From Podarcis cretensis (taxonomy: Eukaryota), in the NCBI GenBank assembly GCA_951804945.1, contig OX638152.1, positions 29,326,001 through 29,390,000 of the forward strand: a DNA stretch of 64,000 bases, given 5' to 3'. Position 1 is the stretch's first letter. Every line of letters starts with the position of its first letter. The translations under genes were made by a program, and so were the position numbers. Shown here in pieces: positions 23,657-54,199 of this stretch. Below the pieces are notes generated by a model that worked only from the letters and a program-made list of their open reading frames with translations, did not search any database and was not told the DNA's origin.

Positions 23657-23787
23657 NNNNNNNNNNNNNNNNNNNNNNNNNNNNNNNNNNNNNNNNNNNN
23701 NNNNNNNNNNNNNNNNNNNNNNNNNNNNNNNNNNNNNNNNNNNNNNNNNNNNNNNNNNNNNNNNNNNNNNNNNNNNNNNNNNNNNNN
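23657..23787. other. Assembly gap (131 N)
   Basis: Run of N; probably covers the simple-repeat tail of the SINE. Confidence 1.
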
Positions 23788-48029: not shown

Positions 48030-49400
48030 CCCGCTTCCTGAAGCCTAGGTGTCCCGGCAGCGCTCCGTAGGCATCCTTCGCCTGAGTCCGACGGCTTCCT
48101 CGCTCGGCTCTGCTGTCGTCGGGCAAAGCAGCCGGCCTCTCTTTCGCAGCCTCCTCACGCCGCTCCGTCTTGTCTTGCAGGCCCCGTGGTCCTCAGCACG
48201 CCGGCCCAGCTCATCGCGCCGGTGGTAGTGGCCAAGGGCACCCTCTCCATCACCACCACCGAGATCTACTTCGAGGTAGACGAGGAAGACCCGGCCTTCA
48301 AGAAGATCGACCCTAAAGTGAGTACAGGACCCAAGTTGGGGGGTTGGGGTTGGGGGGAGGAGGGGGAGGTTTCCCATAACCATGAATTGAGGAATGCTCC
48401 CAAGTGCCTGGAAGCGCCCCCCTTCGTCTGACTCCGTGGCTGTTTTATTTAAGAGCGCAGCGCGTTAATGATGTAAAATCCGCTCTTACTCCCGCGCTCG
48501 CTTTTTAACAAATCCCCCCCCCCCGCACTTCCCCCCGAAGGCCTTTGTATGAACGTGGGCAGATTTAGCAGTTAAGCCAATTGCTCGGAAATCCCTCGAG
48601 GTAATGGCGGGCCCGCACTCCAGCCTCTTTCCTCGGGCACCCGCGGCAGAGAAGGAGGCGCGCTCCCTCTCCGTCTGCCTTCGACGCAGTCCCCAGGGAC
48701 TGGAGCTTCCGCCTCTGCGCGGGTGCGCGTTGCAGGGGCGCGCGGAGCAGCAATTGCACAGCCCGGGCCTGTAGGAACTAGCAAGGTTGGGGTGCGCAAA
48801 GACAGAATCTCTCCCGAAGACCCCTGGAGCAAGGAGATAGAGCGGAGATTTGCCTTGTTACAGAATTCAAAAGTTCACGTCCATGTCGTTTTCCTTCTCT
48901 CCGGATCTATAGTGATATTGTTATTTTAATTTCACTTTCGTAGCCTTGTGTAAATACACACTATTGTGGCCTCAATGTCGAGGCCATCCGTCTGTTGCCC
49001 GCCTGCCAACCTTGACAGGAAGAATTAAAAGTGTCTTCCGGGTTTTAAAACACACACGCAAGCAAAGCAAAGCAAAACAAAACAAAACATGGAGTTGGGT
49101 AACATGGCGAGTCTAACGGTTTTGCTGCAGCGCATCCAAGCGCGGGCAGAGCGCAGCTGAAGTTTGAAACAGTATCACCTGGGCAGATCTTGAGCACATT
49201 GTTGCACCCCCTCAATGCTTGCCGGCATATTTGCCCTTTGGCTGAATCACGGTTTGCATCAGGAAGGAACTGCCTGCTGCGCTCTCGGCAAGGGCAGGAC
49301 GGGGCTTCTGGCGGAGGCGGCTCCTTTGCTCCGGCGGGGCCTCCGGAGAGGCCGGCGCTCGATTTCCCCAAACACAACTGGCGGCGGCTTTATGGCCAGG
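48030..49400. promoter_or_regulatory. CpG island overlapping the NBEA exon and the region downstream of MAB21L1
   Basis: CpG-rich, repeat-free sequence around exon 48181-48317. Confidence 0.7.
48181..48317 (+). CDS. NBEA: Neurobeachin internal coding exon (137 nt), start of the PH-like domain before BEACH
   Basis: Acceptor cttgtcttgcag, donor AAA|gtgagt. Encodes (G)[45 protein letters not shown]; phase 1-0. Confidence 0.96.
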
Positions 49401-49886
49401 CTGGTGATGTTTAGGGCAAAGGTAGCAACATGCTTTACCTGCCGATTGTTGGCTTGACCCCCGCAAATCTCTGAACGTTGCAGTTTCCCCCTCCCTTCTC
49501 TCCAAGTGCTGTTAATTTTGTTACAAACTAGGCTCACTTGGGTAATGCGTGCCTTCAGCTTGGTTCAAAACCGGACAGCCGCGTTAGCCTGGCCCACTAA
49601 ATCTTTTGAGAAGTAGATTTATTTCCTGAGGGTTGTAAAAATGTTACTCGCTTAATTGCCACACACCAGAGTGTGACCGATGTCGATGGCCTTCAGGACC
49701 CCATTTTTTTAGGGTAGGCTACACCGATTTTTATCTTCATTTTAAATTATGCTACTTTTAACAGGCCGTCAAGGGCTTCAGACCCGCTTTACACCGCCCC
49801 TCCCGGCCCCCCAAAAAGAGAGAATGTAGCAGACTGAGGGCTTGCACAAACCCAGATGGAATCCAGCACTGAAACTCTTAAGCATA

Positions 49887-49907
49887 TTTATTTTACTTTT
49901 ATTTATT
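49887..49907 (-). terminator. MAB21L1: Clustered polyadenylation signals of MAB21L1
   Basis: Three AATAAA on the minus strand (+ tttatt at 49887-49892, 49898-49903, 49902-49907) at the end of an AT-rich 3' UTR, with GU-rich ctgggtttgtgc downstream. Confidence 0.65.
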
Positions 49908-50789
49908 AGCTTGTAATTAAATAAAATCAGCAACAGAAATTTAAATCACAAAAAGTAATTATCCAGTGTATTTCAAGTGCATTTTTCCAATATATAATTC
50001 CAATATTCACAATTATATAAGCAAAATCCAAATTTCTTCTGAATATATTTAAATAACATTTCAAGTATATTTATGGAATGGTAGAAATAGAACAAGCAAT
50101 ATATTTGAAACAAAAAAAATGTAAACTTTTTTTTTTAGCTTAGACACTTCAAAAGACAAGTAACAAAAGTACCATGATAAAATCTACCTTTTTTTAAGCG
50201 GTATCTTCTTGAGCAGAAAATGTCCTGAAGTATCCAAAATGGCAATTTAACTTCTTTTCACCAAATCACAAAACACTAACACCCACAATTTCAAAGACAA
50301 TGTGAGATCACAATATTCCATACAAATTTTTTTAAAAAATGTACAGGGGAAGAGTTGGAACAGTTGTGGTTTGTTTTGTTTCTTTTCCTATCTAACGGTT
50401 GTGGTTATTTGGGTGGCATCTTCAGATTCTCTCTTACTCGCACAAAAATCCCGGCCTCGTTATAATCCATTGGTCTGGTTTCTAGGCGGAGTGGTCACAA
50501 TCAGGCTAAAAACGGCAGCCAATATTGCATTTCCCCTGGTGATAATCATACACGGTTTCGTTTTGTTTTGTTTTCCGGGCAGGCTTTTAAAACCGGGATA
50601 CCGGCAAGAGTCATAATACTTGCAGTTGCCTTGGTGTGCGTGTGCGCGCAGGCGGGCAGCCTCTTCCCCGAAGGCAGGGCGACGTTTGCCCCGTAAAACC
50701 CAGCAGAATCCTCCGAAGAGAAAGGCAGTTTTTTCTTTTCTTTTCGCGGGGGAGAGAAGAATAGCGTCGGGCCGCCGCTGGCTGGCCCT
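49908..50789 (-). other. MAB21L1: Probable MAB21L1 3' UTR
   Basis: Between the TAG stop and the poly(A) signal cluster; distal half is very AU-rich with several AUUUA pentamers. Confidence 0.6.
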
Positions 50790-51869
50790 CTAAAGTTTCT
50801 CCAAACTTTTGGGGTTGGTGAGGATCTCCCTGGCCAGCCGCCACGTTTGTTTGGCCGCGTTTTCGAGGGCCGAGTGCGGCTTGCCCTGGAAGAGGTCTAA
50901 GTTGGGCAAGAAGTAGTGCGGGCAGCGCCTGCACTGCAGGCACGAGATGAGCTGCAGCAAGATGCCGTTGAGCCGGTCGCCCAGGCACGACTCGTCCCAG
51001 TCCGACTCGCGGGGATGCTTCTCGCACTCGTACGACACCAGAGTCTTCATGTGGTAGTTGTTGAGCGGCTGGCCGGGCAGCTCGAGGTGGCGATCGCGCA
51101 GCGTCTTGAGGATGGAGAGGCATTTCTTGCGGCAGCCGCCCATCTGCAGCCGGTTCTCGGCCTCGGCGAACTGCAGCACCCAGGCGTCGCTCTCGGCCGA
51201 GCTCTGCTTGCCGGCCAGCGAGTGGCACTCCTTGGAGAGCAGGTTGAAGCCCTCGGCCTTCACCTCGGCCACGCGGTTGGGCCCCGGCCAGGGGATGTGC
51301 GGCAGCGGCCAGTGCGCCGCGCTGCGCGGCCAGATGCCCGTGCACTTGAAGGCGGGCGTGATCTGCACCACGTAGCGGTCGCGGATGCGCAGCTTGACCT
51401 CGCTGGTGTCCGCCACCATCTTCACCACGTCGCGGTAGCTGCACTTGTCCACGGCCTGCGCCACCAGCGTCTGGAAGCGCGAGCGGATCTTGCGCGCCGA
51501 CAGGTAGCCCGAGGCCGTGATGAACTCCACCCAGAGCGACATGCTCCGCTTGCGCCCGTCGCTCAGCTTGAGCACGGCGCAGCCGGGCAGCGAGCCGTCG
51601 TCGACGAAGTTGAAGACGCCCATCTGGTTGAGGTAGAGCACCACCTCGAACTCGGTGGGCGAGATGACCTCCAGGCCCTCGTAGCGGTTGTCCATCTCGT
51701 TGAGGGAGCTGATGAAGCGCGGCTCCTGCACCTCCACCTCCTTCAGCACGTCCGACACCACCTTGCACACCTCGCGGATGGTCTTGGCGATGGCCGCCTT
51801 GCGCGCCTGGCACTTCTCGTTGTAGTATTTGTTGAGGTGGTACACCAGCTTGGCCTGCGCCGCGATCAT
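50790..51869 (-). CDS. MAB21L1: Mab-21-like protein 1 (cGAS/nucleotidyltransferase-fold developmental regulator), single coding exon, 359 aa
   Basis: ATG at 51869 (cccaacATGa) to TAG at 50790 is 1080 nt. MIAAQAKLVYHLNKYYNEKCQARK...TNPKSLEKL; the H/NEK and SLEKL residues distinguish L1 from MAB21L2, and the host gene is NBEA rather than LRBA. Confidence 0.98.
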   Translation of the reverse strand: MIAAQAKLVYHLNKYYNEKCQARKAAIAKTIREVCKVVSDVLKEVEVQEPRFISSLNEMDNRYEGLEVISPTEFEVVLYLNQMGVFNFVDDGSLPGCAVLKLSDGRKRSMSLWVEFITASGYLSARKIRSRFQTLVAQAVDKCSYRDVVKMVADTSEVKLRIRDRYVVQITPAFKCTGIWPRSAAHWPLPHIPWPGPNRVAEVKAEGFNLLSKECHSLAGKQSSAESDAWVLQFAEAENRLQMGGCRKKCLSILKTLRDRHLELPGQPLNNYHMKTLVSYECEKHPRESDWDESCLGDRLNGILLQLISCLQCRRCPHYFLPNLDLFQGKPHSALENAAKQTWRLAREILTNPKSLEKL

Positions 51870-52020
51870 GTTGGGACAGAGATCCGGGTTGTAGACCGGA
51901 GTCTCGCAGTAGGCGCTGGGATCCAATGCGGCTGCTAAGGCGGGAGCCAACTTCAGACGGGAATCCGGACGCCCGGCGCGGGGAAGCGGAGCCCCAGGCC
52001 GCCCAAAGGCGCTGCTCTCG

Positions 52021-52041
52021 CCGCCGCCGCCGCCGCCGCCG
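52021..52041 (-). repeat. (GGC)7 triplet repeat in the MAB21L1 5' leader
   Basis: + strand (ccg)7 with short CAG-type remnants on both sides. Confidence 0.95.
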
Positions 52042-52211
52042 CTGCTCTTTTTGCTGCTCGGCTCCTCCTCAGCTCCGAGGCTCGCTCGCAGGCTCTCTTT
52101 CTCTCTCCTTGCAGGCTGAAGGTGGACCCTTCTGCCCCGGACAGATCTCCGAGTCTTTCCCAAACACGCACAGGCACACAAACCCCTGGGTTTTTTGTTG
52201 GAAACGATCCT

Positions 52212-52232
52212 TCAGGGAGCAGAGGAAAGCAT
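52212..52232 (-). other. uORF2 in MAB21L1 leader (MLSSAP*), in the same frame as the main CDS
   Basis: ATG CTT TCC TCT GCT CCC TGA; 52232-51869 = 363 nt = 121 codons. Assumes the TSS is upstream. Confidence 0.55.
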
Positions 52233-52245
52233 GGAAGAGCTGCAG

Positions 52246-52326
52246 TTAAAAAAAGGGAAGCAAAGTTTGCGCCCAGTTGCAGCCAGGCTCCCACCAGTCA
52301 AAATAATAACACATCGGAGCAGGCAT
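52246..52326 (-). other. uORF1 in MAB21L1 leader (MPAPMCYYFDWWEPGCNWAQTLLPFF*, 26 aa)
   Basis: Two in-frame ATGs (52326, 52314) and TAA at 52248-52246. Assumes the TSS is near 52500. Confidence 0.5.
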
Positions 52327-52509
52327 TTATTTTTCTCCTGGAGTCACCACGGGGTGTGAGTGTGTGTGTGTGTGTGTCTGCGCGCAATGTTGGTAGTCAG
52401 ATGGGGGGGGCGGATTTCTGGGTGTTTCTCTTTCTCTCTCGCCCCCTCTCTGTGTGTGTGTGTCTCCCTGTCTCTGAGTGTGTGTATATGTCAGGAGAAG
52501 CTGGCTGTT

Positions 52510-52640
52510 GGTTTGTATAAGAGCCCAGATGCACTCGCGTGGAAATTATAAAGGCAGGGCCAGGCAGGCGGGCGGCCAATCGCCACTGGGCTCGTCACGG
52601 CAGCCTCTTCCAGCTCCAGCCTGGTTAATTAATCCCTCTC
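52510..52640. promoter_or_regulatory. MAB21L1 core promoter, possibly bidirectional
   Basis: aattataaag (TATAAAG on + at 52547-52553, TTTATAAT on -), CCAAT 52576-52580, CRE half-site CGTCA 52593-52597, TTAATTAA/TAATCC 52625-52635. Confidence 0.6.
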
Positions 52641-53059
52641 GGGGAGACAGAGAAACGCACAAACTCAAGGTAGGGGGCTGGTGGCAGAAAGGGACCAGCC
52701 AGGCCAGCGACCCATTGGGCAGGCGAGGAGGCGGAAGGCGGCTACGGCGGTTGGGGAAAGGACTGCTTGCCACTCTTCTCGCCAGGCGTCCTCCGGAGCC
52801 TGCTCGTGGCGCAAAGGGGACCGCAGGTGCCAGGAACCCGGCACCCTTCTCCCGGCGAACTGGAGAGGCGCTTCGCTCCGGGGAAAAGGAAGCGGAGACA
52901 TCACATGCGAAAACTTGGCTTCAACTGGCGCTGCCTGATAGACGTTGGAAACAGCTGGGAAGTTCTCCGCTTGTCAACCGGGCTAGCCTAGTGTTAGAAA
53001 GTCACCGGTTGTACGATAGAGGGGAAATATGTACCAGGAGCAGCACCCGCCTCCTCTTT

Positions 53060-53365
53060 CTTCTTCCTCCCCAATTAAATAGCACAAAAGGCGAGCTGAC
53101 GGGTCTCAATCGATTGGATGCAAATGGAGACGCGTTTTTTACCTGGCTCTTTAGATTGGTAGCAGCTGAAGGAAGCGACCAGTCGCTGGCGGGCTTGACA
53201 GTTTTCCGGATTGAGTTTCCGAAGACGCGCAGCCCTGGCGAGCAATGAGTTAGTTGCCTTGTTGCCGCCTTTGTGTACCGCACGTGTCGCAAAGGTGCCC
53301 AGCCGCCTCCGCTGTCATTAGCAGCAACATTGTGGCAAAGTAAATGGCAACTCTTAATGGTCTGA
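53060..53365. promoter_or_regulatory. Candidate proximal upstream regulatory element of MAB21L1
   Basis: caattaa, palindrome caatcgattg (53107-53116), octamer ATGCAAAT (53118-53125), TGTCATTA and SOX-type CATTGT motifs in repeat-free DNA. Confidence 0.4.
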
Positions 53366-53892
53366 AGTGGGCAGGTTTCTGCACCCCACCTCACCCCCGT
53401 GTGGACTGTATTTGCAGTCTGGGTGGATTGTAATGGGAACGCGGGACAGAGGAGGAGCGGGAGAAATCGCGGTCAAGCTGGCAGGCAGCTTTTCTGTCCC
53501 ATTTGGACAGTCCAGGTTTAGGGTAGCTCTAGTTATGAGCCACTATCCCATCCAGCGCCTCCAAGCAATGCTGTTGGTTGCGCATAGCCGGCCAAACCTT
53601 CTGGTTTGCCGCCTGCTCTCTTGTTCCAAGAAGCAACACAGTTCGGAACTGGGAGGGGAGCCCTGGAGCAGCTCCACCTTCCCCTCTCCCTTGAACGGCT
53701 TCCAAAAGCATCTAGGAGCATCTTAATGTTAAAATTAATTGGGTGCTGTCTAGGGAAAGTTAAGCGCGCTTTAGTTAATTCGAAATCAATGGGATTTAAG
53801 CCTGCATCCTAAAGATGTTGCTCAGAAATATCCATTAAAATCAATTAATAAGCGTAAAACTAGACTGATGGGTGTTTAAAAAAATATTTGCT

Positions 53893-53985
53893 GCTCAAGC
53901 CTATATACGTCTACTCGTAATTAAGTCCCACTGAGTTCAATGGGACATACTCTCAAGTAAATGAATATAGAATTTTAGAGCCTTA
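53893..53985. mobile_element. About 90-bp palindromic squamate interspersed repeat (representative copy)
   Basis: cctatatacgtctactc...taagtcccactgagttcaatgggacatactctcaagtaa...tatag; related copies near 9855, 26640, 36715, 38755, 54080, 55530, 61350 and 61650. Confidence 0.65.
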
Positions 53986-54199
53986 GGCTGGTGCCTAAAC
54001 CCCATGGATTTCAGTAGAAATCAGGCGCGCTTGATTTGCCCTGAATTTAAGCCCCTTTGTTTATCAGTTGCTCCCTTAAATCTAATGCATGTCTACTTAA
54101 GTAAGGCCAACTGAGTTCAGTCGGGTTTACTGCCAAGGAACGGAATAGGATTGCAACCTTATCCTCCTGCACTCTTGCAGAATTCGTTCCTCGGGTGTC

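Follow-up and report, generated by a model that had tools for sequence, protein, structure and literature searches.

A conserved in-frame extension upstream of the AUG of MAB21L1 and MAB21L2, probably translated from UUG codons into minor longer proteins

N-terminal extensions started at near-cognate codons are known from several vertebrate genes. In VANGL2 (which uses AUA), SFPQ, FXR2 and PTEN-L, as described in the sections consulted of Ivanov 2011 (PMC3105428) and Fedorova 2022, an in-frame near-cognate start lies in good context, the AUG is retained, and the conservation is of coding type up to the near-cognate codon. MAB21L1 and MAB21L2 resemble these genes in all these respects; they differ in that their start is UUG and their arm is short and common to two paralogues, and whereas several of these genes are backed by peptides or by function (VANGL2, SFPQ and FXR2, for example, by non-zero proteomics counts in the tables of PMC9789052), the counts of MAB21L1/2 are 0. 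The closest described cases are the two genes themselves. Supplementary file 9 of Fedorova et al. 2022 (PMC9789052) includes both among its 60 PhyloSET genes, with the same TTGs (+27 and +19) and positive PhyloCSF in 120 mammals. For human MAB21L1 this file gives 36 open codons, a PhyloCSF of 228.3 and a start at TTG 991-1072, i.e. +27 codons, with a Ribo-seq rank of 1950, a coverage of 40.9% and a proteomics count of 0; for human MAB21L2 it gives 20 open codons, a PhyloCSF of 291.6 and TTG 1052-1109, i.e. +19 codons, with rank 4331, coverage 7.1% and again a count of 0. Since the human MAB21L2 frame is open for 20 codons only, any start must lie inside those. Both genes fall outside the top-500 RiboSET tabulated there, and the 2024 addendum (PMC10764858) retains both with recalculated PhyloCSF values of 251.0 (MAB21L1) and 193.3 (MAB21L2).

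These published entries are table rows covering mammals; the sections consulted of the main text of PMC9789052 do not name the two genes, which are not among its 30 re-annotated genes. The supplementary files consulted of PMC3105428 (2 of 3), PMC11317171 (one file) and PMC12045569 hold no MAB21L1/2 row, and a full-text literature search that took in few subscription papers found no experimental test of the extension. Both TTG starts, and the extension with them, thus already stand in print as a prediction, and the feature is of a known kind. The first-pass annotation of the present DNA, made from the letters alone, had proposed an unannotated extended proteoform; a conserved, coding-like in-frame extension is indeed there and both genes are missing from the re-annotated set, but the two starts were already predicted in print. 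What the present analysis adds is the depth to sharks and teleosts, the homology between the paralogues, the two-step layout, the AUG-started arm of invertebrates and the reading of a human variant.

The window, that is the whole stretch of 64,000 nucleotides analysed here, carries the AUG-started MAB21L1 CDS on its minus strand at 50790..51869, a single unbroken frame of 359 amino acids plus TAG with a GC3 of 96%. Its product has the Mab-21 domains and vertebrate MAB21L1 orthology, its body is the same as that of the named amniote MAB21L1 proteins placed beside it in the tree, and it aligns without a gap from Ile2 to the end with human MAB21L1 (PDB 5EOG, E 1e-248). The annotated AUG at 51869 (cccaacATGatc) has A at both -3 and +4, so that it lacks the +4G, as the first-pass annotation had remarked. 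The same annotation was right that the frame 5' of this AUG is free of stops for 114 codons, up to the TGA at 52212-52214 (minus strand). This TGA terminates an in-frame 6-codon uORF (52212..52232, minus) whose AUG at 52232 is the sole in-frame upstream AUG, and the unspliced sequence therefore offers no AUG further 5' from which the extension could be read. In both paralogues the stop-free frame is joined to the CDS with no in-frame upstream AUG opening it.

The core 19-codon extension, (L/M)DPSAYCETPVYNPDLCPN, occupies 51870..51926 (minus); in the window it reads LDPSAYCETPVYNPDLCPN, and it is common to MAB21L2. The arm is free of Lys and Arg, the first such residue of the extended protein being Lys8 of the CDS. 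It begins with a TTG at codon -19 (51924..51926, minus; gccgcaTTGga, with G at -3 and G at +4), the likely near-cognate start of a +19 form in both paralogues. Upstream of it lies a MAB21L1-specific step of eight codons between both TTGs, LAPALAAA (51927..51950, minus), of which only three GCN codons are common with MAB21L2, and this step opens with the TTG at codon -27 (51948..51950, minus; ctgaagTTGgc, with A at -3 and G at +4), likely the near-cognate start of a +27 form of MAB21L1. Both in-frame UUGs, at 51926 and 51950, thus have the purine at -3 and the G at +4 that had been claimed for them. The CTG at codon -29 (51954..51956, minus; tcccgtCTGaa), also proposed at 51956, is present, but with a pyrimidine at -3 and A at +4 its context is poor, and its residue varies among the MAB21L1-type rows reaching that far (L in 11, P in 7, other residues in 8). 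We discarded it on these two grounds, and it is probably no start. The remaining stop-free frame, codons -30 to -114 (51957..52211, minus), includes a (GGC)7 run, is not conserved and is incidental.

Some further features of the locus were recorded. The (GGC)7 run of the MAB21L1 leader lies at 52020-52040 (minus), and in the MAB21L2 leader of the same genome a run of CTG repeats (locus L002, about 1362-1392) lies some 180-210 nt 5' of the AUG; the human MAB21L1 leader appears to carry a CAG repeat. Two out-of-frame upstream AUGs at 52326 and 52314 (minus) open frames of 26 and 22 codons with a common stop ending at 52246, and three out-of-frame upstream AUGs (24, 3 and 1 codons) occur in the MAB21L2 leader; the upstream AUGs of both leaders may gate the flow of ribosomes to the UUG and AUG starts. 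Inspection by eye showed, at about 52545-52580 (minus), a CCAAT-box-like ATTGG with TTTATAAT some 30 nt after it; this pair would place the start of transcription near 52520, so that the UUGs would fall within the leader. An alternative frame of the same strand, stop-free for 485 codons (50611-52068, minus), overlaps the CDS over its full length and is most likely a by-product of the 96% GC3. A single run of 131 N at 23657-23787 is unrelated to the extension. Four of the 24 public runs listed were compared with the stretch and proved uninformative: two DNA runs gave contigs matching the MAB21L2 paralogue only and two RNA runs gave none.

The length of the open frame and its GC3 had been offered as signs of coding. 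The count of 15 G/C third positions in 19 codons is correct, but the likeness to the CDS did not stand, the extension being lower than the 96% of the CDS (Fisher p=0.007). The same 15/19 is equalled in two of the five other upstream 19-codon blocks (-39..-57 and -58..-76), Markov simulations of the leader yielded an open frame of 19 codons in 58-68% and of 114 codons in 4-10% of cases, and the human frames upstream of the AUG are open for only 36 (MAB21L1) and 20 codons (MAB21L2). Frame length and GC3 were accordingly discarded as evidence for coding. What exceeds chance in the MAB21L1 leader is conservation, and since this ends at -28/-27, neither the 114-codon length nor the CUG at -29 carries the signal.

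The genome search returned one further match besides MAB21L1, namely MAB21L2 (2 of 2 candidates). The MAB21L2 leader encodes LDPSTYCESPVYSPDVCPN-M and is preceded by GCN-GCN-GCN-TTG-GAT as in MAB21L1. Over codons -19 to -1, ten codons are identical between the two genes, five differ synonymously and four by conservative changes (A/T, T/S, N/S and L/V), with no indel. The likeness to MAB21L2 that the first-pass annotation had suggested is therefore borne out, with 15 of the 19 residues identical and the same TTG. Each of the five other frames gives 9-12 identities, and over -40..-20 only 4 of 21 residues match. At the nucleotide level the paralogues share 44/57 positions in the extension, 21/57 further upstream and 19/57 after the stop. 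Under a model of 13 randomly placed substitutions that takes no account of transition bias, the frame-specific identity has a P of about 0.0008; the third-position excess alone (7/13, p=0.10) is not significant. This frame-specific identity, together with the published positive PhyloCSF, amounts to a protein-coding pattern of substitution. The similarity has its 5' edge at GCN-GCN-GCN-TTG, codon -22, and from there runs to the AUG, whose context is the same in both paralogues (A at -3). TTG makes up 3 of the 41 Leu codons of the MAB21L1 CDS and none of the 45 of MAB21L2, and its retention at -19 in both genes, in spite of this rarity, speaks for selection acting on this very codon. A block in L002 at 1471-1485, CGTCTGGAGCAGGCT, resembles the CTG-AAG-TTG region of MAB21L1, 12 nt further upstream and without the TTG; it is possibly a decayed -27 start, or chance. 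The arm would have arisen before the duplication that gave MAB21L1 and MAB21L2.

To follow the extension beyond this genome we collected 217 proteins by protein searches and cluster look-up, comprising 107 vertebrate-type, 103 invertebrate-type and 7 unplaced rows; the rows cannot be counted as independent species, and protein searches return open frames only and cannot show stops or frameshifts. Of the 107 vertebrate-type rows, 60 begin with the AUG-encoded Met and therefore carry no information on the extension. The remaining 47 have upstream residues, all 47 ending in CPN, and the whole arm is kept in 42 of the 44 vertebrate rows with at least 19 upstream residues; two rows (P0170 and P0171) have no more of it than the proximal 14-15 residues. 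Named rows bearing the arm come from catshark, several teleosts, Xenopus, salamander, gecko, rattlesnake, pigeon, sparrow, sheep, bat and rodents, and the suggested conservation across vertebrates thus holds at the protein level from catshark to mammals. Positions -10..-1 are nearly invariant in 35-36 of the MAB21L1-type rows. Four arm rows have in-frame insertions, of one residue in three and of 22 residues in P0015, a fast-evolving MAB21L1 copy grouped with cod-like fishes which nevertheless retains LDPSAYCE and PDLCPN; a search for jawless-vertebrate arms via P0015 gave no new vertebrate rows. The upstream step behaves as a feature of MAB21L1: [L/M]AP stands at -27..-25 in 23 of the 29 MAB21L1-type rows and the step is missing from the MAB21L2 rows, while conservation among the MAB21L1-type rows fades past -28. 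A near-cognate codon in good context therefore lies at the 5' edge of conservation in both comparisons, at -22 between the paralogues and at -28/-27 among MAB21L1 orthologues. Nine database rows begin exactly at -19 and two exactly at -27; most of them are apparent prokaryote-style gene calls, and these proteins suggest that a TTG stands there too. The arm also has an S/T-P site at codons -11..-8 (51891-51902), TPVY in MAB21L1 and SPVY in MAB21L2, where catfish and characin MAB21L1 rows (P0144, P0145 and P0161) have PPVY, which has the form of a candidate WW-domain-binding motif.

A metagenome scan for DNA of vertebrate orthologues gave 80 loci, and the vertebrate-type arm was absent from the 60 of them in which the anchor was found. 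Outside the vertebrates a different arm appeared. Protostome Mab-21 proteins are coding 5' of the vertebrate-start Met and carry a Pro/Asp-type cap before the spine helix (MLVP[P/S/A]D-M in arthropods, MLL[E/D]G[S/N]SPD-M in molluscs), comparable to the vertebrate PDLCPN-M; they differ in being AUG-started, in having only 6-9 residues and in lacking the YC..P.Y motif of the vertebrate arm. To judge from the protein sequences, the likeness between the two arms is probably limited to this cap. Directly before the Met, MLVPxD is found in 57 of the 103 invertebrate-type rows and the MLLEGSSPD type in 9; 13 rows start at the Met and 24 have other upstream sequence, and nine of the 103 have no Met at the vertebrate-start position. 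Amphioxus rows are annotated from the Met, at the protein level. In metagenome loci the short protostome-type arms are started by a true ATG at the DNA level (e.g. L006, L008, L010 and L012). The vertebrate 'Met1' is therefore internal in many protostomes, and we found these upstream-AUG arms nowhere in the literature searched.

Combined together, these observations make it very likely that the extension of MAB21L1/2 is real and very probable that it is coding. We consider it probable, on balance with some assurance, that the conserved 19-codon stretch of MAB21L1 and MAB21L2 is translated by leaky scanning from UUGs into minor extended proteins, and the good context of the TTGs and the sharp 5' edge of conservation at them support UUG starts. 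The published human Ribo-seq signal adds modestly to this, whereas the low MAB21L2 coverage, the place of both genes outside the top-500 RiboSET and the proteomics counts of 0 weigh against it. Scanning ribosomes that pass the short uORFs, or re-initiate after them, would meet the UUG at -27 (in MAB21L1 only), then the UUG at -19 and then the AUG, giving forms of +19 amino acids in both genes and of +27 in MAB21L1 only. Most ribosomes would skip the UUGs and initiate at the AUG, so that the 359-residue form should be the major one. In the reporter library of PMC5778536, in the part consulted, UUG initiation reaches at most 5-10 where the best AUG is set at 100; by these data each UUG would account for some 5-10% or less, leaving the extended forms in the minority, and the weakness of UUG together with the A at -3 of the AUG is what leads us to infer that the +27 and +19 forms are minor.

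It is quite unlikely, in our view, that the UUG-started form is instead the main or functionally essential one in embryonic tissue and the annotated AUG largely an internal Met. The near-invariance of the proximal arm (-10..-1) is strong constraint for a minor product, the equivalent Met is often internal in invertebrates and missing altogether from nine invertebrate-type rows, and the AUG lacks the +4G; yet this same AUG has A at -3 in an identical context in both paralogues, the Met is retained in the vertebrate rows, with the exception of a frameshifted frog copy (P0008), and UUG is a weak starter by the published part of the reporter data (PMC5778536). Moreover a heterozygous MAB21L2 c.1A>C is recorded as likely pathogenic in the section consulted of PMC11511899, a single case which fits a need for the AUG form. 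Conservation at the level of DNA or RNA, be it of an enhancer, an RNA-binding site or a translation-control element in which initiation itself matters, with the peptide irrelevant or unmade, is very unlikely. Conserved non-coding sequence abounds at the MAB21 loci, according to PMC11511899, both the GCN codons and Lys/Gly/Asp at -28 are readable as Kozak context, and peptide reports are none in the tables consulted of PMC9789052 (proteomics 0). Against this, substitutions favour the frame of the extension and the nonsynonymous ones are conservative, PhyloCSF is positive, and the insertions are in frame, that of 22 residues included, which would be unlikely in a DNA motif, though the bias of protein searches applies to them. 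No RNA fold is common to the paralogues and Rfam gave no match within 49000-54000; a shared hairpin downstream of the UUG, which might raise its use, was sought and is not supported, with z -2.17 in MAB21L1 (4 of 200 shuffles), +0.33 in MAB21L2 and -0.72 when taken from the -27 codon. That the arm is translated from an AUG in a further 5' exon missing from the annotation, and spliced in through an AG close to codon -28 or -22, we regard as highly improbable, for although an AG precedes both MAB21L1 steps (ctgaag|ttg and ccttag|cag) and the arm is linked to an AUG further upstream in many NCBI gene models, the upstream sequences of these models are mutually unrelated, as expected of ab initio joins, the human extension coordinates in the tables consulted of PMC9789052 are contiguous within one exon, and in MAB21L2 the nearest AG of L002 stands about 33 nt 5' of the TTG, whereas codon -21 already closes the frame in human.

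If the minor UUG-started forms are made, the question is what the arm adds. The body of human MAB21L1 solved in PDB 5EOG/5EOM, a cGAS/MAB21 nucleotidyltransferase fold, matches the window protein from Ile2 to the end, and the solved chain is without the arm; so are the N-terminally FLAG- or GFP-tagged constructs described in the sections consulted of PMC8238893 and PMC9681113. An AlphaFold model of the +19 form built on 115 sequences reached a mean pLDDT of 88 and a pTM of 0.87, superseding a poor first model from 56 sequences (pLDDT 63, pTM 0.49). In it residues 1-13 have a pLDDT below 50 and residues 11-20 average 54, and helix alpha1, the spine helix, is extended back to Leu-4 with moderate confidence. 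The model gives no support for docking of the arm onto the catalytic or ligand surface, and the near-invariant arm offers little contact signal. In the part of the crystal structure report consulted (PMC4897736), alpha1 residues I2, A6 and Y10 lie in the pentamer interface, the conformation is inactive with Gln169 replacing the third catalytic acid, and activity was not detected; PMC9681113, in the part consulted, likewise detected no NTase activity, using N-terminal GFP fusions. The first-pass annotation had suggested a Tyr/Cys/Pro-rich regulatory arm on a cGAS-like enzyme; a role of the arm as the missing activator is, with residues 1-13 below pLDDT 50 and a crystal form inactive with Gln169, so far unsupported. 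The arm might mostly be flexible, replacing a Met-Ile-Ala N-terminus by Met-Asp-Pro, and might add one turn to the spine helix. The acetyltransferases and degrons that act on Met-Asp N-termini differ from those for Met-Ile. Tentatively, the arm most likely tunes stability or the contacts with partners or within the oligomer at alpha1, rather than turning on catalysis.

The extension also touches the reading of human variants. The section consulted of PMC8238893 reports MAB21L1 c.-68T>C, found in trans to p.Arg62Cys, and classes it as non-coding and of uncertain significance. This nucleotide is the middle base of codon -23 in the +27 frame, a TTA (Leu) in the window at position 51937, and with the codon read from the window sequence and the amniote rows, the variant would be missense in the +27 form, a reading which the literature searched does not contain. 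Position -23 is Leu in the amniote rows; fishes and amphibians have Gln, Pro or Ser instead, which argues for tolerance of change there. MAB21L2 c.1A>C would abolish the AUG form and leave the +19 form with Leu at that position. A more far-reaching joint reading, unlikely as a whole, would make the UUG-started forms of MAB21L1 and MAB21L2 functionally essential in the developing eye and brain: vertebrates would have exchanged the AUG of an ancestral N-terminal arm for a stringency-sensitive UUG, the arm would cap the spine helix and control oligomer or partner binding or activity in a manner missed by arm-less biochemistry, c.-68T>C would be missense at Leu-23 and MAB21L2 c.1A>C would be no full start-loss.

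The value of the extension lies in a cheap and well-defined test and not in a new kind of system, the prediction being in print. MAB21L1 and MAB21L2 are human eye-malformation genes without known biochemical activity. If the longer form exists, c.-57 to c.-1 in both genes and c.-81 to c.-58 in MAB21L1 would count as coding sequence in the interpretation of variants, and the assays of activity, oligomer and interactome made on the AUG form would deserve to be repeated with the native N-terminus.
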